Positions 2,827 through 26,306 of a DNA stretch of 40,944 nucleotides are shown here, piece by piece. Each line of letters starts with the position of its first letter. Position 1 is the stretch's first letter. Position numbers and translations under genes: made by a program. A model generated the notes under the pieces. It had not been told where the DNA came from, ran no database searches, and worked only from the letters and a program-made list of their open reading frames with translations. Origin of the DNA: Candidatus Ornithomonoglobus sp. (GTDB taxonomy: Bacteria; Bacillota; Clostridia; UBA1381). Location: the NCBI GenBank assembly GCA_051877395.1, contig JBJEIV010000326.1, forward strand, positions 1 through 40,944, in the 5' to 3' direction.

Positions 2827-3612
2827 TTAAAGCGCTGCAAGCTCCCTGTACAATTCCTTTTTTCTGCTCATAAGAACAGGAAACTCCGCTCTCTTTTTCT
2901 CAACATCTGCCGGAATATCTGCTATAAGCATACTCTCCTTATAAGGCACCGCCTGCGCAACAACATTGCCCAAAGGATCAATTATCATACTGTCGCCGCT
3001 GTATGACAGTCCGTCCTGCTCTCCGCAGCAGTTGATGCCTATTATATAAGCCTGATTTTCAATTGCCCGCGCCTTCAGCAGCGTTATCCAGTGCTCACGC
3101 CTTGAAGCAGGCCAGTTTGCCGCTGTCGTCATTACGGTAGAGGTATCGGTCACAGCTCTGAAAATTTCGGGGAATCGCAGATCGTAGCATATAAAGGTCG
3201 AAATTTTATGCCCCGCTATTGAAACGGTTGTCGGAAGTGCGTTTCCGCTTTCAAAGTCCTCCCGCTCTCCGCCTATGGCAAAGGAATGTATTTTTACATA
3301 ATCGCTTACAATATTACCGTTTTTGTCCGCGACAGCATAATGATTTTCTCCCTTGCCCTTATTCAGCCTTACATAGCCAAAGCCTATTGCGATATTATTT
3401 TCCGCCGCGGCGCGCTTCATACATTCTATCGTAAAGCCGTCGCTTTCTCCCATGAACCCGATATTCATTGAAAACCCGGTAAAGCTCATTTCGGGAAAAA
3501 AGCATATTTCGGCGCCTTTTTCCGCTGCCGTTTTAATAAGCTCCAACGCTCTTTTCAGATTTTCCTCTTTGTTTTCAAATATAATTTCAGTCTGAAATAC
3601 CGCTGTTTTCAT
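2827..3612 (-). CDS. Carbon-nitrogen hydrolase (nitrilase superfamily) protein
   Basis: 261-aa ORF with the FPEMSFTG glutamate motif and the FICYDLRFPE catalytic Cys motif typical of C-N hydrolases. Confidence 0.85.
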   Translation of the reverse strand: MKTAVFQTEIIFENKEENLKRALELIKTAAEKGAEICFFPEMSFTGFSMNIGFMGESDGFTIECMKRAAAENNIAIGFGYVRLNKGKGENHYAVADKNGNIVSDYVKIHSFAIGGEREDFESGNALPTTVSIAGHKISTFICYDLRFPEIFRAVTDTSTVMTTAANWPASRREHWITLLKARAIENQAYIIGINCCGEQDGLSYSGDSMIIDPLGNVVAQAVPYKESMLIADIPADVEKKRAEFPVLMSRKKELYRELAAL

Positions 3613-3616
3613 ATAA

Positions 3617-4879
3617 TTATCTTATTCTCTTTGCTTCAAGATAAAATCTCTTGTCAGCCGCTTCACCCATTGAGAAGGTCTTTCTCGGAAGCGAGCCGTC
3701 CTTTATTACGGTTGTGAAAAGGTCGTTTTTCTCCATACCGTCCACAATAAAGCCTATTGTATCAGGCTTTTCGGTGAGATTTCTTACAACGTCCGCGCCG
3801 TGGATATAATCTATTTCGCCGCCGCTTGTCACAAGATACTCATCCAGGAATTTCTGCAAGGTTCCTATGGCAAGATTTGAGGGCGCGTCCGTTATGTAGA
3901 CGGCCTTTTCCTTACCCTGACATGTTATTACTATTTTCTGTCCGCCGTTATCCGTTTCGGATATCTGCGGATAATATGAATACAGTGCAAGCTCCACCTT
4001 CTCTGGGTCAACGTCAAATACAACTCTGTGTATAGGCTCAAACTCAAGCGCCTCGTCATGAAGATTCATAAGCTCAACCAGAGCGAACCGCGCGGGATGA
4101 TTTCTCTGCTCCTCCGCCGATAAGGTTTTCTTTATTTCCTCCCAGCAGGTCTTTGCCGTCGCAAGCGAATGATTTCCGTCGCCTACCGCAATCACAAGAA
4201 CATCCCTGCCCTTTACACCATACTTTTCATCAAAAGCATCTCTGTCCTCAAGCGCGTGAAGTCCGTTTATTACTGCCTCCTTTGATGTCTCGTCAAGCAG
4301 CCTTCCCTTTATGTGTCCGCCTCCCTGCATAAGGTCAAAATCATAAACAACCTGTAGCTCAGAAGCCTTTGCCGTTACAGGCTCCACTATGGTCTTTTCC
4401 CTGTCATCGACAAGCATGAGTATATGGGGAAGCTCCAGCGGAGCGTTCTTTCTTATCTTCTGTCTCGGCGGTATTCTTGAAATTATTGTGCCCTCAGTCG
4501 CTCTTACCGCCGACTGTGAGCCCTTTGAAAAATCATAATATTCAAGGTCAATTTTGCCGACTATACCGTGGCGCACCTTTCCGTTCGGCTGTGTACGCTC
4601 AACGTATATAAGGCTGTCGTGATATTCCTCAAAGATACCGTCTTTGAGGTATTTTTCCATTGTCTCGTTTATCTTCTTTATCCTCTCATCATCATTTCCG
4701 TCATTGAGATATGCCTCCGGGAAAATGATATTGAGAGTTGACGGCGCATCGCCCACAAGCTCCGCGGCGCGCTTCCAGTATTCCGGCTCCGAGGAATACT
4801 GATCGCAGGCAACCACGCTCCACTTTGTAAAATCCTGATTCTTTGGCAGCAATATATCTGCCGGCATAAAAATATCCAT
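3617..4879 (-). CDS. DUF1015 family protein
   Basis: 420-aa ORF. The WSVVACDQYSSEPEYW and VGDGNHSLATAK motifs resemble the DUF1015 (DGHHR-type) family. There is a 4-nt gap to the downstream C-N hydrolase gene. Confidence 0.65.
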   Translation of the reverse strand: MDIFMPADILLPKNQDFTKWSVVACDQYSSEPEYWKRAAELVGDAPSTLNIIFPEAYLNDGNDDERIKKINETMEKYLKDGIFEEYHDSLIYVERTQPNGKVRHGIVGKIDLEYYDFSKGSQSAVRATEGTIISRIPPRQKIRKNAPLELPHILMLVDDREKTIVEPVTAKASELQVVYDFDLMQGGGHIKGRLLDETSKEAVINGLHALEDRDAFDEKYGVKGRDVLVIAVGDGNHSLATAKTCWEEIKKTLSAEEQRNHPARFALVELMNLHDEALEFEPIHRVVFDVDPEKVELALYSYYPQISETDNGGQKIVITCQGKEKAVYITDAPSNLAIGTLQKFLDEYLVTSGGEIDYIHGADVVRNLTEKPDTIGFIVDGMEKNDLFTTVIKDGSLPRKTFSMGEAADKRFYLEAKRIR

Positions 4880-5382: not shown

Positions 5383-5394
5383 AGCTTCCACCTT

Positions 5395-9067: not shown

Positions 9068-9102
9068 TTCCATACCTCCAAAATCCATAATCTCGCTTAT
9101 CT

Positions 9103-9222
9103 ATATAGCTTGCATTAAGTACCCTGTATTTTAATAGTACTTAATGCAAGCGGTTAAGACCTCTTTTGACTAAGTTTTCTTCATTGCATTGACTATAGAA
9201 AACTTAGTCAAAAGCATATATA
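9103..9222 (+). repeat. Double-hairpin intergenic repeat, copy A
   Basis: About 120 bp and about 90 percent identical to 26187-26306. Hairpin 1 has a perfect 15-bp stem (9108-9122 / 9137-9151). Hairpin 2 has a perfect 17-bp stem (9163-9179 / 9198-9214). Differences between the copies inside stems are compensatory. Confidence 0.85.
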
Positions 9223-14232: not shown

Positions 14233-17200
14233 CTATTCAAGAATACTCATAATATCGTCAGCCGACATCTTCATAATATCACCCTCACCGTTGAGCGCTA
14301 TATCGGATAACGCCTCCTTGCGCTGCTGCATCTCGATAATTCTCTCCTCAATAGTTTTCTCCGCAATCAGCTTATATATCTGAACGTTTCTTTTCTGTCC
14401 TATTCTGTATACACGATCCGATGCCTGGTTTTCCGCCGAGACATTCCACCACGGATCATAATGGATAACTATATCCGCCCCTGTAAGATTCAGTCCCGTT
14501 CCTCCCGCTTTAAGCGAAATAAGAAACAGCTTTGTATCATCCGAATTAAAGCTGTTAACCATTCTCAGTCTTTCCTTCGGCTTTGTTTTTCCCGTAAGAG
14601 TGTAATAGCTTATACCCCGCTCGCTCAGATTTTTTGCTATTATATCAAGCATTGATGTGAACTGCGAGAACAGCAGTATCTTATGTCCGGCATTCATGCA
14701 GCTTTCAATAAGCTCCATGCACATTTCAAGCTTCGCACTTGTACCGGTATAATTCTCATATACCAGCGAAGGATCACAGCATAGCTGACGCAGTCTTGTA
14801 AGCATTGCAAGTATCCTAAGCTTATCCTCTCCGCTGCCGCTTGAGGAGCCTAACAACTGTTTGGTTTCAATTACATGCGCCGAATATATTTTGCTCTGCT
14901 CCGGCTCCATTTTTGCCTTCATAACCGTTTCGGTCTTATCCGGAAGCTCGGTAAGAACCTCTTTTTTCAAACGTCTCAGAATAAAGGGCGAGGTCAGCTT
15001 CTGAAGCGCCCGCACCGTGTTGTTATCATGCCGTTTTACAATCGGGGTCTCATAGGTCTTTTTAAAATATGTGTACGCATGAAGATACCCCGGCATGATA
15101 AAATCAAATATACTCCAAAGCTCGGCAAGACTGTTTTCAACAGGCGTTCCCGTCAGCGCAAAGCGCACTTTTGATTTTACCCCCTTTACCGCCTTTGCCA
15201 TCTGCGTGCCGTGATTTTTTATGTACTGCGCCTCGTCAATAAAATGCAGATCAAAGCTCATGTTTTCATATTTCGATATATCACGAATCAAAGTCTGATA
15301 TGAGGTTATCACCACATCGTATTCGTCTATCATATTAATATATTCATTCCGCTCAGACACTGTGCCTGCTATAGTAACAGCGCTCAGCGACGGAGCAAAT
15401 TTGCGGATTTCGCTTTCCCAGTTCAGCGCAAGCGATGAGGGGCATACGACAAGAAACCTGCCGTGTCCTTTATTTGCCGCCTTCATATCAAGCATAAGCG
15501 AAATAGCTTGTAATGTTTTTCCCAGACCCATGTCATCCGCCAGTATTCCGCCGAAGCCGTATGCTGCAATCGTTTTCATCCATATAAAGCCGTATTTCTG
15601 ATATTCTCTCATAACCGGCTCAACCTCCGCCGGAAGCTCCCAGCTCTGAGCTTCGTCCATGAGAGAATTATACTGCTTTATAAGCCGTTTAAACTCACTG
15701 TTTCTTGCAATCCGCATTCCGTCAGCATCATTCTGTATACCGTTAAGATACAGCATTCTGTACTGCGGAAGCCTGATATTCTCCTTGAGAAGCGCCTTGT
15801 CGGTGATGTTGAGATTTTCCGCCAGCTCCGCAAGCTCCCGCAGTCCGTTATCGACCGTCATAAATGAACCGTCTTTTAACCTGTGGTACTTTTTTCCCAT
15901 ACGGTACGACTTCAGACCCTCAACAAGCTCCTCTATCGTATACCCTTGGGCGGTGACATCAAGCGCAAGCAGATTGCTTTCCGCCCTCACGCCCACAACC
16001 GGATGCGCCGGAGGTCTTACATTTATCCTCTTGAACTTCTCGCTTGCATAGATATCCATCAGCTCCGAAAGCCTGTCCAGACCTTCCGTCATAAACCGAT
16101 ATATCCTCTCATCACCCTCTATAACCAGCGGCTCTGTCAGATAATGTCTGTAGTCAAAATACTGCTGAACCGTCTGCTCGGCTGCCGTTTCTCCGCTGTA
16201 GTCGCAGAACGGGTTCTCGCTCTTTTTATAAAATGCGGCATAGCTTTTCCCGTCATACACAAATTCAAGACGCGCGGTTATCATATCCTTATCGGGCGCA
16301 TCCACATACAGTCTCGTTTCAAGCTCCGGCGGCGCGTACTGCTCAACCAGATCAAGTCCTTCTATGTCAATATACGGTATCAGCGGCTTTATCACCGCGT
16401 TGTAGAATGCGGGCATATCCGCGTTTGAAATACATATTTGTTTCTTGCTCCTGAACGCCTCGCACAATCCGCATACCATTCTTGTATACTTAACGTCGCA
16501 TATATAAAACTGTTTTTGTCTGTTACTGAAAAAATACGCATGTCTGCCGCTGCCGCAGTATACGAACTCTTTGTCAAGCTCTATATAATATCTTCCGCTG
16601 CTGTTTACCGCAATGTTAAGGTGAAGCTCCGGATTTTCAGATTTAATATAATACCGCTCACCCGAAAAGCTGATATACTCATCACAATACAATTCAAAAA
16701 AATCATCTATCCACCGTTTATTTAACTCATGAGTTCTTTTTTTGTCATAAAAGCTATACTCATACCCATAGCCGGAGGTCTTATATATATTCATCGCAAG
16801 ATTGACCACTCTGCGGCTCTTTTCATCAACCGCATCCCAGTCATGATGAAAGGTAAGCTCCTTTCCGTAGCGCTCGGTTGCGCGGTTTGCAAAATTTGAA
16901 TACAAATTGTCTATATTTTTTACAATATACGATCTTCCGTGCTCTTTTCCTATCTTAAGAATAAACGACAAATTATTATATTCGTCGTATTCCAGCTCCG
17001 GCACAATACGAACCCGTTCATCAGATACATTATTCAGGGCCTCACCGGCAGCATTGCTGCTGTAGTATTGCAATAGATACCCCACCTCACGAGAGCTGGT
17101 TCCCATCAGCTGATCCTTATTATCCCTCACCGCAAGCAGCGCCGCGGCCATATGCTTGCAGTAAGCGCCCCTGTCATAAGGACAGTTACAGTCAATTTCT

Positions 17201-17385
17201 GTAACGTTTCCGTCCGCGTCCAGACTGAGCGTAACCGTATAGGTTTTACTTCCCTTAACCTCAACGGCAAGGCTTCCTATAGCTGCCATTGCCTGTATAG
17301 AACGCACCCGCCCCTGCCTGTAATAGTTAAGTCCTCTATGATATATCGTACTGTTTATATAATTCCAGAAATTATTTATATGCAT
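14233..17385 (-). CDS. SWIM zinc-finger / SNF2-family helicase
   Basis: 1050 aa. N-terminal SWIM motif CNCPYDRGAYCKHMAAALL, then a long SNF2-associated middle region. SNF2 motifs are present: ILADDMGLGKT (I), DEAQYIKN (II), LTGTPVEN (III) and a helicase-C region (GGTGLNLTGADIVIHYDPWWN). Confidence 0.9.
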   Translation of the reverse strand: MHINNFWNYINSTIYHRGLNYYRQGRVRSIQAMAAIGSLAVEVKGSKTYTVTLSLDADGNVTEIDCNCPYDRGAYCKHMAAALLAVRDNKDQLMGTSSREVGYLLQYYSSNAAGEALNNVSDERVRIVPELEYDEYNNLSFILKIGKEHGRSYIVKNIDNLYSNFANRATERYGKELTFHHDWDAVDEKSRRVVNLAMNIYKTSGYGYEYSFYDKKRTHELNKRWIDDFFELYCDEYISFSGERYYIKSENPELHLNIAVNSSGRYYIELDKEFVYCGSGRHAYFFSNRQKQFYICDVKYTRMVCGLCEAFRSKKQICISNADMPAFYNAVIKPLIPYIDIEGLDLVEQYAPPELETRLYVDAPDKDMITARLEFVYDGKSYAAFYKKSENPFCDYSGETAAEQTVQQYFDYRHYLTEPLVIEGDERIYRFMTEGLDRLSELMDIYASEKFKRINVRPPAHPVVGVRAESNLLALDVTAQGYTIEELVEGLKSYRMGKKYHRLKDGSFMTVDNGLRELAELAENLNITDKALLKENIRLPQYRMLYLNGIQNDADGMRIARNSEFKRLIKQYNSLMDEAQSWELPAEVEPVMREYQKYGFIWMKTIAAYGFGGILADDMGLGKTLQAISLMLDMKAANKGHGRFLVVCPSSLALNWESEIRKFAPSLSAVTIAGTVSERNEYINMIDEYDVVITSYQTLIRDISKYENMSFDLHFIDEAQYIKNHGTQMAKAVKGVKSKVRFALTGTPVENSLAELWSIFDFIMPGYLHAYTYFKKTYETPIVKRHDNNTVRALQKLTSPFILRRLKKEVLTELPDKTETVMKAKMEPEQSKIYSAHVIETKQLLGSSSGSGEDKLRILAMLTRLRQLCCDPSLVYENYTGTSAKLEMCMELIESCMNAGHKILLFSQFTSMLDIIAKNLSERGISYYTLTGKTKPKERLRMVNSFNSDDTKLFLISLKAGGTGLNLTGADIVIHYDPWWNVSAENQASDRVYRIGQKRNVQIYKLIAEKTIEERIIEMQQRKEALSDIALNGEGDIMKMSADDIMSILE

Positions 17386-17540: not shown

Positions 17541-17602
17541 TATTGTACTACTTAGCATATAACGAAGCGTAAATTTTATGAATATGATACGGAGAAAGTG
17601 TA

Positions 17603-18004
17603 ATGGAAAGCGTAAAATTTCCAGATTGGGACATAAATGATGTATTTACAATACATTATATGAAGCTCAATCAAATACCATTTGATAAAATCAAGAGCGG
17701 AGAAAAAACAATAGAAATTCGTTGCAATGATGAAAAGCGGCAGATGTTAAAAGAAAATGATATTATTGTGTTTCAGCTTGTAGATAACGAAAATGAAACT
17801 ATAATAACAAAAGTTAAAGCACTATATAGATTTAAAACCTTTTACCAATTATATTCCGCGTTCAATTTTTCTGAATTTGGGTGCGAAGGCTATACCATGA
17901 GAAGAATGCTTGATGAAACAGAAATGATTTATTCCAAAGATAAAGAACAAAAATATGGCGCATTGGGAATACGGATTGAGGTTATAAATAGAGAGGTAAA
18001 CTGA
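17603..18004 (+). CDS. ASCH (PUA-like fold) domain protein
   Basis: 133 aa. FDKIKSGEKTIEIRCNDEKRQMLKENDIIVFQ is the typical ASCH N-terminal pattern. A GGAGAAAG RBS is present. Confidence 0.7.
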   Translation: MESVKFPDWDINDVFTIHYMKLNQIPFDKIKSGEKTIEIRCNDEKRQMLKENDIIVFQLVDNENETIITKVKALYRFKTFYQLYSAFNFSEFGCEGYTMRRMLDETEMIYSKDKEQKYGALGIRIEVINREVN

Positions 18005-18513
18005 TGAACATATATATATTCCGCGGCAAGTCCGCAACAGGTAAAACCACATTGACAAATATATTAAGCAAAAAACTCAATATTCCCGTTTTGCGTAAGG
18101 ATAATATATTCGATGAGTTATCAAAATACGAAAAGGATATATCTGTTTTGAACAGCGCAAGCTATGATATCCTCGCACGGCAGATACAAACTTGCATTGA
18201 TAATAATTCTGATGTGATAGTTGATATTGCCCTGCAGCATACGCCGTCATTTAAAGTATTTTTAAATAAAATTGATTTTAAGGATAGTACGATTTACCAA
18301 TTTTTCTGTGATTGCAGCAATGATGATATATGGCTTGAACGGTGGCGTGAAAGATTGAAAAATCCTCTGCCTAATCAGTATTTTAAAAATATTGATGAAA
18401 TTGTAGGGCATTATGACAAATGTGATATAGAATTGTTAAATAGTGAGATTGTTTTAGATAGTATACTAAAAATGGATGTCCTTATGAATAAAATTTTGGA
18501 GGTATTCAAATGA
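18004..18513 (+). CDS. Small P-loop NTPase / nucleoside-nucleotide kinase-like protein
   Basis: 169 aa with Walker A FRGKSATGKTTL at the extreme N-terminus. The start overlaps the ASCH stop (TGATG at 18002-18006). Confidence 0.65.
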   Translation: MNIYIFRGKSATGKTTLTNILSKKLNIPVLRKDNIFDELSKYEKDISVLNSASYDILARQIQTCIDNNSDVIVDIALQHTPSFKVFLNKIDFKDSTIYQFFCDCSNDDIWLERWRERLKNPLPNQYFKNIDEIVGHYDKCDIELLNSEIVLDSILKMDVLMNKILEVFK

Positions 18514-18545
18514 AGTTAATATAGAAAGATCGTGAATTGATACAG

Positions 18546-18890
18546 ATGGCTACTGATATTATACGAAAAAATTATGACAGCGTAAATTACTGGCATACGG
18601 TAGGTGCAGCTGTGCGTACAAAAAGCGGCAAAATATATTTGGATGCTAATTGCGACTCAGTAAGTCATGGTTCGTGCGCAGAATTTATTGCTATAGGTGC
18701 GGCTGTGACGGCAGGAGAGCGTGAATTTGATACTATTGTTGCGGTGCTTGGAGGCGAGCATAAGAAAATTCTTCCGCCCTGTGGGAACTGCCGGCAGATG
18801 ATGTATTGCTATGATAAAAATATCAATGTAATTGTAAATGATACTACAAGGGAAAACATACTGGATTTGTCGAAATATCCATGTGATTAA
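18546..18890 (+). CDS. Cytidine-deaminase-fold zinc enzyme (small homotetrameric CDA / blasticidin-S-deaminase-like)
   Basis: Zinc and catalytic motifs SCAEFIAIGAAV (C-A-E) and PCGNCRQMM (P-C-x2-C). About 114 aa counted from the ATG at 18546. Confidence 0.75.
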   Translation: MATDIIRKNYDSVNYWHTVGAAVRTKSGKIYLDANCDSVSHGSCAEFIAIGAAVTAGEREFDTIVAVLGGEHKKILPPCGNCRQMMYCYDKNINVIVNDTTRENILDLSKYPCD

Positions 18891-18906
18891 TAGATTGGAG
18901 AAAAAT

Positions 18907-19425
18907 ATGAGTAGAGAGATATGGGATGCATATGACAAGGATGATAATAAATTAGGATATGACTTGTTCCGAGACGAGCCTGTACCAACAGACGTATATC
19001 ATATTGTTGTTGAGATATATGTTTTCTCCCATGACGGCAGGGTTTTGATAACACAGCGCGCGGCTAACAAAACATATCCTTTAAAATGGGAAAACACTGG
19101 TGGTTCAATTTTAAAGGGAGAAACGCCGATACAAGGCGCTATCCGAGAATTGAAAGAGGAAACAGGAATTGCTGTAACAGAATCACAGCTAAAGCTTGCA
19201 TATACGGAAGTCAAGCATCCGCCAATATATAAATGTTTCGTTGCGATTGTTGATGGAAACGAAAAAATTACCTTGCAGGAGGGTGAAACTGTTGACTATA
19301 AATGGCTGCCGTATGAGGAGTATTTGGAACTACTTAAAACAGATGAATTTGTTGACAGAGTGGCAGATAGCTTTATGCGTCATATTGATGAAATAGAAGA
19401 AATTGTACAATTAAGGTTAAAATGA
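18907..19425 (+). CDS. NUDIX hydrolase
   Basis: NUDIX box GGSILKGETPIQGAIRELKEETGI. The ATG at 18907 follows a GGAGAA RBS. The ORF-track extension to 18838 overlaps the deaminase gene. Confidence 0.85.
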   Translation: MSREIWDAYDKDDNKLGYDLFRDEPVPTDVYHIVVEIYVFSHDGRVLITQRAANKTYPLKWENTGGSILKGETPIQGAIRELKEETGIAVTESQLKLAYTEVKHPPIYKCFVAIVDGNEKITLQEGETVDYKWLPYEEYLELLKTDEFVDRVADSFMRHIDEIEEIVQLRLK

Positions 19426-19973
19426 AAAATATTATACATATCTATGGAGCGTCCGGATCAGGCACATCAACATTAGGAAGAAAAATAAGTGATGAGTTGG
19501 GTTATAAATTTATTGACACAGACGACTATTTTTGGATGCCTACAAATCCTAAATATCAAATAAAGCGTGACAGAGTGAAGCGAATTTCTCTAATGATGAA
19601 AGACATTGAAAAATCTGATAATGTTGTTATCAGTGGTTCTCTTGTTGATTGGGGCGATGAGTTAATTCCGCTGTTCACACTTGCCGTCAGATTAATAGCT
19701 GATACTGATATAAGGATTGCGAGATTACGAAAGCGCGAGCATAATGAATTTGGTTCAAGAATAGATTTTGGCGGTGACATGTATGAGCAACATGAACAAT
19801 TTATTGAATGGGCTAAACATTATGATAATGGAGATGTTAATATGAGAAGCAAAGCAAAACACGATGAGTGGGAAAAGTTTTTGCTATGCAAACAAATTGT
19901 ATTAAACGGTGCAGATGATTTGGATAGTAATTTTCAGAAAGTAAAGGGGGAATTAGTTAATTGTGCGGTATAA
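19422..19973 (+). CDS. P-loop kinase-like protein (adenylate-kinase / topology-modulation FlaR-like AAA family)
   Basis: 183 aa with Walker A IYGASGSGTSTLG. ATGA overlap with the NUDIX stop (19422-19425). Confidence 0.7.
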   Translation: MKNIIHIYGASGSGTSTLGRKISDELGYKFIDTDDYFWMPTNPKYQIKRDRVKRISLMMKDIEKSDNVVISGSLVDWGDELIPLFTLAVRLIADTDIRIARLRKREHNEFGSRIDFGGDMYEQHEQFIEWAKHYDNGDVNMRSKAKHDEWEKFLLCKQIVLNGADDLDSNFQKVKGELVNCAV

Positions 19974-20089
19974 CAAGTAGACGGCAAGTAGCCATGCTCG
20001 TATAAATTTGATTTTGTTTTTGGGATAGTCTCAAACCCTTTTTATGCATTTGTTATAGAATTTGATGTGAAGTTTGTTATGTATGCGAA

Positions 20090-20118
20090 TTGATTACCTG
20101 TTACATTAATGATATAAT
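20090..20118 (+). promoter_or_regulatory. Putative sigma-A promoter of the ATPase/DUF4435 pair
   Basis: TTGATT (20090-20095), a 17-nt spacer, then TG-a-TATAAT (20113-20118). Confidence 0.45.
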
Positions 20119-20233
20119 ATTTTAATATAATGTTTTATCATTAATTTTTCTGTAACTATAAGAAATTGTGTTGAACATCGCAAATATTTGTATTAATAAA
20201 TTAATATTGAAATATACTATTAGGAGGATTAAT

Positions 20234-21637
20234 ATGTTTTACTATTTTTATGATGATGACGAATCGGTGGTGAATAATTTGAATTCAACAAAGCTTGAAT
20301 ATATAAAAATAAAAAAATTATTTGGGTATGCTAATGTTGAGTTGCATTTTGATAAAGAAGTTAATATATATATTGGAGAGAATGGTCTAGGAAAAACAAC
20401 AATCTTAAATTGTGTTTATTATGTATTAAAAAAGAAATATGACAAACTTGCTGAAATTGATTTCTCATCAATCCATATAAAATTCACAGAAGAGCGTAGA
20501 GAATTTGTTCTTAGCGTATTTGATATTAACGATTATAATAAACGAAAAATGCCTAGACGTAGATGGTATGATGAAGATTTGATTAAGCTTATTCTTAATG
20601 AAGCTACCATGGGATTATATACTATCAATGGTATTGATAGTGAAGAATTAGAGTTTGCTACTTTAAAGCTATCACGCGTGGATGGTATTCCTATGGATAT
20701 AGCTAGACGTCAGATAATGGAATATCTAAAAATAGGAAGATTTAATTCTGATGGAGAGATAAAGAAAGGTAATTACAAAAAAGTAATTGAATTAAATGAA
20801 GCATTAGATGAGTATATAACCCAAAAAATTTTATATTTCACAACATATAGACGCATTGAAAATGATTTCTCAAAGCTTATAAATAAGGGAGAACGAGTTC
20901 AAGAATCAGATATGCTGATTAGGTTTGGTATGGCTGACGTAGAAAAGTCGATTGGAAATATATTAAATTTGATTCGTGAAAATTCAAGAGAGAGTTTTAA
21001 TAAGATGACAGGGGTTTTATTAAAACAATATGCTTCCAGAAACAAGATTAACAGCAATGTTTTGTCTGATATCTCAATAAATAAAGATATGTTAAAAATA
21101 ACTCTTGATAGATTAGGAAATGAAATAGCAGAAGATGATAGAAATAAGATAATTTCTTTATTAGATAACGGTGATATATATAAAAGAGAATATTCATATT
21201 TGCTTGATTTAATAATAAAACTTATAGATAATTACAATAAGCAAAAAGTTTATGATGATAAAATTCAAAATTTTGTTTATACTTGCAACAAATATCTAAA
21301 CGGAAAACAATTTGTATATAATCAAAGTGACTTGAAATTAGATATTAAACTACTTAATAACAAATTAAATAACATCAAGCTTATGCAATTGTCATCAGGC
21401 GAAAAACAGATTGTTTCTTTGTTTTCAAAACTATATTTGGAAAATGATAAGGATAGTATTTTGGTAATTGATGAACCTGAACTTTCGTTATCAATGAAAT
21501 GGCAAAAAATGTTGCTTCCAGATATTATGAGATCAGGAAATTGCAAACTTCTTTTAACTGTTACTCATTCACCTTTTATTTTCGAAAATGAATTTGATAT
21601 GGATGCACAAGAAATGAGAAATTGTATAACTAATTAA
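20234..21637 (+). CDS. ABC-type (AAA_15/21/23-like) ATPase, AriA-like component of a PARIS/AbiL-type defence pair
   Basis: The ATG at 20234 (MFYYFYDDD) follows an AGGAGG RBS. Motifs: Walker A GENGLGKTT, ABC signature LSSGEKQ, Walker B ILVIDEPELSL and H-loop TVTHSP. A long helical insertion sits between the ATPase lobes. Confidence 0.75.
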   Translation: MFYYFYDDDESVVNNLNSTKLEYIKIKKLFGYANVELHFDKEVNIYIGENGLGKTTILNCVYYVLKKKYDKLAEIDFSSIHIKFTEERREFVLSVFDINDYNKRKMPRRRWYDEDLIKLILNEATMGLYTINGIDSEELEFATLKLSRVDGIPMDIARRQIMEYLKIGRFNSDGEIKKGNYKKVIELNEALDEYITQKILYFTTYRRIENDFSKLINKGERVQESDMLIRFGMADVEKSIGNILNLIRENSRESFNKMTGVLLKQYASRNKINSNVLSDISINKDMLKITLDRLGNEIAEDDRNKIISLLDNGDIYKREYSYLLDLIIKLIDNYNKQKVYDDKIQNFVYTCNKYLNGKQFVYNQSDLKLDIKLLNNKLNNIKLMQLSSGEKQIVSLFSKLYLENDKDSILVIDEPELSLSMKWQKMLLPDIMRSGNCKLLLTVTHSPFIFENEFDMDAQEMRNCITN

Positions 21638-21653
21638 TTAGGGGGAATTAAAA

Positions 21654-22583
21654 GTGAATACTGAAGATAAAAGTTCTACTTCGCTTTTGGATGAAATGCG
21701 AACAGCTAGAGTATCATCAAATGTGGCTTTTATTAATTTTATTGATAATCATAATAAATTTAATAGTCATGTGTTTTGTTTTTACGAGGGAGAAGATGGA
21801 AAATATTATAACCAAAGAATAAAATCAATTATTGGGGACAATATAATACCCATAAAAACAGGTAACAAAAGAGAAACAATAAAAATTTGGAGAAAAATAA
21901 AATCGGAACCAATTTATAATAATGCGAAAAAGATGTTTTTTATTGATAAAGATATGGATGATATTCCAGAAGATAAAGATGAAGACTTATATATAACCCC
22001 ATGTTACTCAATTGAAAATTTTTATGTGAACTCTCAAACATTTGGTAGTATATTGGAATCTGAATTTTCTTTGAGTAGGCTAGATAACGATTATGCAAAA
22101 TGTTTGAATACTTTTGAAAAACTTTATGAACAGTTTAACAATGAAATGATTGAATTTAATGCCTTGATATTACTTAGGAAACAGAAAGAACCTGGAAATG
22201 GGAAAGTGAATTTGAAAAATATAAAAACACGTCAAATGATTTCAGTTAAACTTGATAGAGTAAAAAAAGGCTCTAAATATAACGAATTTATAAATCAATT
22301 AAAAACCAAGTTGAGTGTAAATGATGAAGAGTTAGCTGACGCTATAGACACAATTAAAACTTTAGGAGATTATCCAAATTTATTTCGAGGAAAAAATCAA
22401 CTTGATTTTATGGTAATCTTATTAAATATTTTGAAACAACTCAATGCAGAAGGAAAATTTTTTGATAAGAAGCAAACAAGCGTAACGATTAATTTGACTG
22501 GAAATCGCCTAAGTGAATTAAGTCAATATGCTGCATTTCCATCATGCTTAAAAGAATTTATTCAAAATCATAAGATTGCATGA
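21654..22583 (+). CDS. DUF4435 (TOPRIM/OLD-type nuclease) protein, AriB-like
   Basis: GTG start after a GGGGGA RBS, 16 nt after the ATPase stop. TOPRIM-like Glu motif FCFYEGEDGKYY and DxD motif FFIDKDMDD. Confidence 0.7.
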   Translation: MNTEDKSSTSLLDEMRTARVSSNVAFINFIDNHNKFNSHVFCFYEGEDGKYYNQRIKSIIGDNIIPIKTGNKRETIKIWRKIKSEPIYNNAKKMFFIDKDMDDIPEDKDEDLYITPCYSIENFYVNSQTFGSILESEFSLSRLDNDYAKCLNTFEKLYEQFNNEMIEFNALILLRKQKEPGNGKVNLKNIKTRQMISVKLDRVKKGSKYNEFINQLKTKLSVNDEELADAIDTIKTLGDYPNLFRGKNQLDFMVILLNILKQLNAEGKFFDKKQTSVTINLTGNRLSELSQYAAFPSCLKEFIQNHKIA

Positions 22584-22681: not shown

Positions 22682-22941
22682 CAACACTCGACAAGGCGAA
22701 AATTACAGGTTTATTGGATATGTAAATTCAAGCTGATTGACAGAAAAAGCGATATACAAAAGCAACAGTTGATTGATACCTTTGTAAATTCAATATATGT
22801 TTATGATGACAAAATGCTAATTACATATAACTACAAGGACGGCGAAAAATGTATTGACTATGAGGAAATACAGAAATATATGAACAAAAAGAAAAACTCT
22901 GATAATCCTGAGGACTATCAGAGTTCGCCTTTTAATACTTT
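22682..22941 (+). pseudogene. C-terminal remnant of a (serine-type) site-specific recombinase
   Basis: The frame is open only from 22682. The segment LIDTFVNSIYVYDDKMLITYNYKDGEKCI resembles the conserved C-terminal tail of clostridial large recombinases. No catalytic N-terminal part is present. The ORF-track ORF then reads through the antisense of the tRNA. Confidence 0.45.
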
Positions 22942-23017
22942 TGGTACGCGATCAGGGGTTCGAACCCTGGACACCCTGATTAAGAGTCAGGTGCTCTACC
23001 AACTGAGCTAATCACGC
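22942..23017 (-). tRNA. tRNA-Lys (anticodon CUU), copy 1
   Basis: Minus-strand cloverleaf: GCGTGAT-TA-GCTC-AGTTGGTA-GAGC-A-CCTGA-CTCTTAA-TCAGG-GTGTC-CAGGG-TTCGAAC-CCCTG-ATCGCGT-A-CCA. The anticodon loop CUCUUAA gives CUU. CCA is encoded. The acceptor stem has G1-U72 and U4-G69 wobble pairs. Confidence 0.9.
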
Positions 23018-23079: not shown

Positions 23080-23155
23080 TGGTACGCGATCAGGGGTTCG
23101 AACCCTGGACACCCTGATTAAGAGTCAGGTGCTCTACCAACTGAGCTAATCACGC
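23080..23155 (-). tRNA. tRNA-Lys (anticodon CUU), copy 2
   Basis: 100 percent identical to 22942-23017. It is separated from copy 1 by a 62-bp spacer containing the hairpin CCGGAACACCTC / GAGGTATTCCGG. Confidence 0.9.
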
Positions 23156-26068: not shown

Positions 26069-26186
26069 TATAATTATTTTATAACACTTTATTCTGCATT
26101 ATAGTATATATTATGCCGGAAATCAACTTTTTTCTTCAAAAAAAGATACACCGCATTTAAGCAGTATATCCTTTTAAAAATCATTC

Positions 26187-26306
26187 TATATAGCATGCAT
26201 TAAGTACTTCGTATTTTAATAGTACTTAATGCATGCGCTGAATGCCTCTTTTCACTAAGTTTTCTTCATTGCATTGACTATAGAAAACTTAGTGAAAAGC
26301 ATATAT
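26187..26306 (+). repeat. Double-hairpin intergenic repeat, copy B
   Basis: Same orientation and architecture as 9103-9222. Perfect 15-bp stem (26193-26207 / 26222-26236) and perfect 17-bp stem (26248-26264 / 26283-26299). It lies between convergent genes. Confidence 0.85.

Follow-up and report, generated by a model that had tools for sequence, protein, structure and literature searches.

The mechanistic prototype of the PARIS anti-phage system is that of Escherichia coli B185 (PMC11464382, PMC12409363), in which the ATPase AriA and the nuclease AriB form an AriA6:AriB3 complex (PMC11464382). Phage proteins such as Ocr activate PARIS, and the pores that bind the trigger show little conservation from one clade to another; the AriA and AriB trees distinguish 11 clades (Burman et al. 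2024, PMC11464382). E. coli AriB cleaves tRNA Lys, Thr and Asn, including tRNA-Lys(UUU) (PMC11464382, PMC12409363). Anti-phage activity has also been demonstrated for PARIS of Lactococcus, as summarised in a review (Grafakou 2024, Mosterd 2025, via PMC13064643). Among related systems, AbiL and RloAB are grouped with PARIS in one AAA15/21 ATPase tree (Burman et al., PMC11464382); according to a 2026 review, AbiLii is not significantly similar to AriB in sequence (PMC13064643). Here, we analysed a contig of 40,944 nt (JBJEIV010000326.1, assembly GCA_051877395.1; hereafter the window) from Candidatus Ornithomonoglobus sp., in which a first reading made from the letters alone (the original prediction) had placed a PARIS (AriA/AriB) or AbiL-like module of two genes, an ATP-binding cassette (ABC) ATPase together with a TOPRIM nuclease.

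We find that this pair is very likely a two-gene PARIS anti-phage system, carried as a horizontally acquired, self-contained cassette next to tandem tRNA-Lys genes, in a region that varies between strains. Family models, folds, conserved residues and the pairing of the two genes in 80 of 80 related loci support this reading; a role in phage defence is predicted by analogy with the characterised systems. The label "AbiL-like" holds for the shared architecture and fails for the nuclease, as gene 2 matches no AbiL or RloB model. The two genes are as follows.

Positions 20234 to 21637, + strand: ariA (gene 1), ABC/SMC-type ATPase, 467 aa; ATG 20234, TAA 21637
Positions 21654 to 22583, + strand: ariB (gene 2), DUF4435 TOPRIM nuclease, 309 aa; GTG start 21654

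As originally described, the genes form a module in the same orientation, both intact, with a gap of 16 nt. Gene 1 has the ribosome-binding site AGGAGG at 20222-20227 ahead of ATG 20234, and gene 2 has AGGGGG ahead of GTG 21654. The mechanical list of open reading frames (ORFs) starts gene 1 at an upstream GTG, 20168, and its homologues begin at ATG 20234. Homologues of gene 2 are 309-316 aa long and span 96-100% of the protein. Both can be taken as real genes, since their hidden Markov model (HMM) matches reach E-values of 1e-33 to 1e-34 and full-length homologues number in the hundreds.

Assignment of gene 1 to AriA

All four ATPase motifs named in the original prediction (GENGLGKTT, LSSGEKQ, VIDEPELSL and THSP) are present in the translation of gene 1. 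The Walker A motif lies at G48-T56, the signature at S387-Q392, Walker B at D413-E414, a WQ pair at 423-424 and the H-loop at H445. Walker A, the signature, D413-E416 and H445 show no variation among 30 homologues, and Walker B D413/E414 as well as W423/Q424 are kept in 90 of 90 AriA-AriB pairs. In the AlphaFold model (predicted local distance difference test, pLDDT, 76.9), the long helical insertion that had been proposed between the ATPase lobes is seen as helices at roughly residues 95-352.

Gene 1 falls closest to AriA. In Pfam, it matches AAA_15 (6.3e-15) and AAA_21 (1.5e-14), both above the curated cut-offs. In PADLOC, the AriA model PDLC04164 is the best of 82 matches at 2.6e-33, compared to 8.5e-16 for the best PtuA model and 1.5e-10 for GajA. 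When the Protein Data Bank (PDB) was searched with a profile built from 30 family sequences, the best match was AriA 8ux9_B at 4.5e-18, and the next was retron PtuA at 5.6e-8. A Foldseek search with the AlphaFold model gave the same order: the top 14 matches are all AriA chains (8v45/8v46/8ux9), at about 1e-13 over about 475 aligned columns, and retron PtuA comes next at about 1e-9. On the NCBIfam PtuA model, gene 1 scores 50.6 bits, where the cut-off is 500.

Assignment of gene 2 to AriB

The acidic motifs YEGEDG and IDKDMDD, which had been noted as TOPRIM-like, are both found in the translation of gene 2, and HMM searches place the protein in the DUF4435/TOPRIM family: it matches Pfam DUF4435 at 1.2e-34, above the curated cut-off, and in PADLOC its sole match is the AriB model PDLC02983 at 1.7e-33. 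No RloB, AbiL, TOPRIM-Old, HNH or mad4 model was matched in Pfam or PADLOC, with no AbiL even at E<=1. The AlphaFold model of gene 2 has a pLDDT of 88.8 and a predicted template modelling score (pTM) of 0.83. In the PDB, Foldseek returned as the only significant folds the AriB chains 8ux9_A (2.1e-5) and 8v46_D (6.3e-5), with probability 1.00 and template modelling (TM) scores of 0.48-0.52 over the full length; an OLD TOPRIM domain followed as a non-significant match.

The predicted metal-binding residues of gene 2 are E45, D48, D98, D100 and E121, and R245-G246-K247 is also conserved. In a joint alignment, residues of E. coli AriB correspond to those of gene 2 as E26 to E45, D30 to D48 (with a one-residue register shift), D88 to D98, E90 to D100, E122 to E121 and R236 to R245. 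This alignment is anchored on the motifs and collinear along the full length, and its numbering fits the residues given for the E. coli protein (PMC11464382, PMC12409363). Among 44 sequences from many phyla, D48, D98, D100 and E121 never vary, while the conservation of E45 is at least 90%; in the set of AriA-AriB pairs, E45 is found in 89/90 and D48 in 90/90.

The pair in other genomes

In each of 80 genome loci with a relative of gene 2, an AriA-like gene lies directly upstream of the AriB-like gene. The hosts include Clostridia, Bacilli, Cyanobacteria, Bacteroidota, Pseudomonadota, Planctomycetota and others, and the ariA-ariB pairing is obligate across phyla. The surroundings vary: relatives have as neighbours Cap4-nuclease and AbiH genes, a TIR gene or a tyrosine integrase, or are found in a conjugative element with a type IV secretion system coupling protein, and beside a restriction-like pair of methyltransferase and helicase. 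Five viral contigs of IMG/VR also carry relatives. No close relative was found on annotated phages or Lactococcus plasmids (no such plasmid matched gene 2 at E<=1e-5). Since ariA and ariB are the only two genes common to loci that differ in everything else, the pair behaves as a self-contained mobile defence cassette.

Distance from the E. coli prototype

Several results weigh against the assignment to PARIS. The fit of gene 2 to solved AriB is moderate, with 15-16% identity, a TM score of about 0.5 and a root-mean-square deviation of 7-8 Å. A profile of the gene 2 clade, built from the 44 cross-phylum sequences, misses solved AriB even at E<=10; a single-sequence phmmer search and a 30-sequence profile miss it too, and hhalign fails to align the clade with E. 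coli-type AriB (probability 0.2). Sequence profiles do not detect each other, and the connection of gene 2 to solved AriB depends on the family models that they share, on fold and on the collinearity of their motifs. At the interface of the E. coli complex, D401 and E404 of AriA contact R28 and R31 of AriB (PMC11464382). The two AriA positions correspond to K422 and K425 in gene 1, and the two AriB positions to E47 and K50 in gene 2. No compensating co-variation was found between AriA positions 422/425 and AriB positions 47/50 in the 90 pairs. A charge-swapped interface was considered and found unsupported, as AriA 425 is basic in about 70% of the 90 pairs whether AriB 47 is acidic or basic. 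Given lysines at the contact positions and no compensating co-variation, the interface may not match that of E. coli in its details. Over such a distance, the stoichiometry, trigger and target of the E. coli system cannot be transferred to this pair with confidence.

To calibrate this distance, we used an E. coli-type PARIS pair from the Pseudoalteromonas plasmid NZ_CP045419.1 (AriB at 3465-4397), whose AriB matches the solved AriB chain at 6e-70. In PADLOC, this pair scores 4.2e-31 for AriA and only 2e-10 for AriB, and its AriB has no Pfam DUF4435 match at E<=0.01. Since gene 2 reaches about 1e-34 on models where E. coli-type AriB reaches 2e-10 or gives no match, gene 2 lies near the centre of the family and the prototype is the outlier. 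The family models with which PARIS is detected represent the E. coli-type AriB prototype poorly. The description of the pair as a "very divergent member" was therefore misleading, as gene 2 is distant only from the characterised E. coli prototype.

The clade of gene 2, which is marked by FCF(Y/F)EGED and TPCYSIEN, is found across phyla, and it could have a different RNA target, AriA-AriB interface or trigger logic than E. coli PARIS, a proposal that we regard as unlikely.

Proposed mechanism

If the pair acts as the E. coli B185 system does, AriA would assemble as an oligomeric ABC-ATPase scaffold that holds AriB inactive, and the ATP-dependent detection of a phage protein would lead to the release of AriB. 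Free AriB would then dimerise and, as an endoribonuclease with two metal ions, cut certain host tRNAs in the anticodon arm, which would halt translation and abort the infection. In the clade of gene 2, the trigger and the exact tRNAs that are targeted may not be those of E. coli.

Alternative explanations

A first alternative, which we consider quite unlikely, is that the main role of the pair is addiction, as a toxin-antitoxin module that keeps its carrier elements stable, with phage defence secondary or absent. The depositors of the PDB entries call AriA an "antitoxin", and a review classes PARIS as type II toxin-antitoxin-like (PMC13064643); moreover, relatives occur in a conjugative element, and the present pair sits in the scar of a decayed mobile element. 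Against this, experiments have shown that PARIS protects E. coli and Lactococcus from phage (PMC11464382, PMC13064643), many relatives lie beside other defence genes in chromosomes, and the cassette is intact here though its carrier element has decayed. An addiction role is compatible with PARIS biology and does not replace the reading as a defence system.

It is very unlikely that the pair belongs to another ATPase-TOPRIM system of the OLD superfamily (AbiL/RloAB, Gabija, class 1 OLD, MADS3-4 or Septu/retron PtuAB). All of these systems share the same ABC ATPase (PMC11464382); gene 1 also matches many PtuA, mad3 and GajA models at 1e-10 to 1e-16, and the structures of retron PtuA are its next-best folds at about 1e-9. 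AriA nevertheless surpasses PtuA by at least 10 orders of magnitude in the E-values of the HMM and profile searches and by about 4 orders in Foldseek, and gene 2 matches the AriB model alone in PADLOC. No UvrD helicase (as in Gabija), HNH nuclease (as in Septu) or reverse transcriptase lies nearby, and the ATPase and nuclease sit in separate genes, unlike in class 1 OLD.

It seems highly improbable that the cassette is a relic, silent or in decay, that has lost its expression or function. Its carrier element has decayed to a recombinase remnant and the support for a promoter is weak; both ORFs, however, are full length compared with their homologues, every catalytic or near-invariant residue that was checked is kept, and the ribosome-binding sites are intact. 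An ordinary housekeeping repair module, with a RecF/RecN/Rad50-like ATPase and a TOPRIM nuclease, of which a form had been named as one reading that would overturn the PARIS call, has a negligible chance and is refuted for practical purposes by matches, composition and context: its weak matches (SMC_N at 8.6e-7, below the Pfam cut-off; RecF at 2.5e-6, far below; Rad50 structures at about 4e-4) are under the curated thresholds and cover generic ABC lobes only, the pair is missing from the corresponding region of the sister strain, and its base composition is foreign and its contexts in different genomes are unrelated.

Base composition and promoter of the pair

The pair had been called extremely AT-rich, and the figures agree: the G+C fraction (GC) is 0.267 at 20001-21000 and 0.256 at 21001-22000, compared to 0.45-0.53 in most of the window. 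It had also been credited with its own promoter, for which we found one good consensus match within a 260-nt gap upstream of gene 1.

Positions 20090 to 20118, + strand: candidate sigma-70-type promoter of the pair, TTGATT-17-TATAAT, with TG before the -10 element; 10/12 consensus matches

A consensus scan of the region found 29 promoter-like sites, compared to 26 expected by chance from shuffled sequence. Since such sites are no commoner than in shuffled AT-rich sequence, a promoter belonging to the pair is plausible rather than demonstrated. The -10 element of this candidate promoter is overlapped by a near-perfect palindrome at 20105-20145, with 20-nt arms that are 85% complementary and a spacer of 1 nt. 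The palindrome might serve as an operator, or it may be a mere product of the AT-rich sequence.

Genomic context

The features that flank the pair are as follows.

Positions 17543 to 19973, + strand: left part of the strain-variable block; five small enzyme genes of 35-37% GC at 17603-19973
Positions 22682 to 22903, + strand: C-terminal remnant of a large serine recombinase; open frame without its own start codon, translated in frame +3
Positions 22887 to 22933, - strand: hairpin terminator (terminator-like site), which belongs with the tRNA-Lys genes
Positions 22942 to 23017, - strand: tRNA-Lys(CUU) copy 1, called by ARAGORN; Rfam tRNA 68.3 bits; 3' end towards the island
Positions 23080 to 23155, - strand: tRNA-Lys(CUU) copy 2, identical to copy 1; complete

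Downstream of ariB, residues 11-74 of the recombinase remnant match gut phage contigs at 4e-15. The matched full-length recombinase (528 aa) has Resolvase, Recombinase and Zn_ribbon_recom domains and ends in the same terminal motif as the remnant. The remnant is the scar of a mobile element. With a GC of 26% compared to 45-50% in the host genome, and with a recombinase remnant beside tRNA genes, the pair appears to be of foreign origin, and the most economical explanation is that the cassette arrived next to the tRNA genes in a mobile element that later decayed. The mechanical ORF at 22769-23011, which overlaps a tRNA gene, is spurious.

The two tRNA-Lys copies are 138 nt apart, start to start, and the repeat reaches into the 5' leader (90 nt, 96%). 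Beyond them lie ruvC and argG at host-like GC; an exact-sequence look-up of RuvC found nothing. The local tRNA-Lys(CUU) carries U36AAUCA41, the cleavage-site sequence of E. coli AriB, together with U16/U17. Changes as in T5-like tRNA confer resistance to AriB, and U36AAUCA41 with U16 is the cleavable type by the E. coli rules (PMC12409363); because its sequence is of this sensitive type, the local tRNA-Lys(CUU) is not a resistant decoy. A functional link between PARIS and tRNA-Lys as a feature of the family was considered and rejected: a tRNA gene lies within 6 kb in just 3 of the 80 related loci, none of them tRNA-Lys, and no tRNA was found in six further related loci. The adjacency of the pair to tRNA-Lys is best read as an insertion hotspot. 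A more speculative proposal is that the adjacency is functional, for instance that extra dosage of a target tRNA might buffer leaky AriB.

Upstream of the pair, the five small enzyme genes match the Pfam families ASCH, AAA_33 (kinase-like), cytidine deaminase-like, NUDIX and AAA_18 (kinase-like). They were considered as part of the PARIS cassette and rejected, as none accompanies the pair in any other locus. PADLOC recognised among them only the NUDIX protein, as candidate system PDC-S07 (1.1e-14). In two related loci (L012 and L013), an unrelated NUDIX gene lies directly upstream of the PARIS pair.

The left boundary of the variable block is defined by the sister strain, which shows 94% nucleotide identity through the SNF2 helicase gene until homology ends at position 17542 of the window (position 5390 of the sister locus L100); the SNF2 protein is 96% identical. 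The neighbouring genes in the sister (cysteine desulfurase-like, ATP_bind_3, ThiF and Ni_insertion) are missing from the whole 41-kb window. An empty site with a clean insertion was therefore rejected on this comparison, and the difference between the strains is a rearrangement or a larger replacement. The clostridial origin given in the original prediction is confirmed by this flanking SNF2 gene, which clusters with proteins of Candidatus Ornithomonoglobus metagenome-assembled genomes (MAGs), class Clostridia. The gene (14233-17385, - strand) encodes a SWIM and SNF2 helicase of 1050 aa with strong PADLOC matches to DpdE and ZorD that cover the helicase core only. Since it is syntenic in the sister species, it is probably a core gene rather than a defence gene.

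Intergenic DNA of the window has two copies, 91% identical, of a double-hairpin repeat of about 125 nt, at 9097-9222 and 26185-26306. Its stems are kept by compensatory changes (TTGCA/TGCAA versus ATGCA/TGCAT; TTGAC/GTCAA versus TTCAC/GTGAA), and it has no Rfam match at the gathering threshold. A copy in the sister strain (L100 9399-9524) is 99% identical and sits at a different position, so that the repeat may be a small mobile or variable element.

Comparison with known systems

Among the systems related to this pair, Gabija has GajA, a fused ATPase-TOPRIM protein, accompanied by the UvrD-like helicase GajB, whereas here the two functions are in separate genes with no adjacent helicase. In Septu and the PtuAB of retrons Ec78/Ec83, the ABC ATPase PtuA is homologous to gene 1 and ranks next after AriA among its matches by both sequence and fold; their partner is the HNH nuclease PtuB, sometimes with a retron, and neither is present here. 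AbiL (AbiLi/AbiLii) and RloAB resemble the pair in having an ABC ATPase gene followed by a separate TOPRIM nuclease gene, but their nuclease is of the RloB type, while gene 2 is a DUF4435 protein. PARIS of Lactococcus shares with it a Bacillota host and the two-component arrangement of ATPase and TOPRIM nuclease.

The closest comparison is with PARIS of E. coli B185 (PDB 8UX9, 8V45-8V49). The gene order is the same, ariA and then ariB, and the proteins are of similar size, with 467 and 309 aa here compared to PDB chains of 464 and 308-316 aa. The ATPase motifs, including WQ after Walker B, the TOPRIM acidic residues and the RG(H/K) motif are shared. In contrast, the identity in the fold alignments is 14-18% for AriA and 15-16% for AriB, and gene 2 has about 19 extra N-terminal residues and is without the E. 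coli insertion that bears K60/K64. Here the system is found in a Clostridia MAG and is not carried by a P4 satellite.

The locus is a further member of the known PARIS system, in the genome of an uncultured Clostridia lineage of the chicken gut, and it is an ordinary find in that standard defence-finding software would call the pair automatically. Its value is comparative. The clade of gene 2 is widespread (Bacillota, Cyanobacteria, Bacteroidota and Pseudomonadota), with no characterised member identified, and the AriB of E. coli B185, which serves as the mechanistic prototype, is an outlier in sequence within its family. From a member of the gene 2 clade it could be learnt whether the cleavage of tRNA-Lys/Thr/Asn and the 6:3 sequestration described for E. 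coli hold for PARIS generally.

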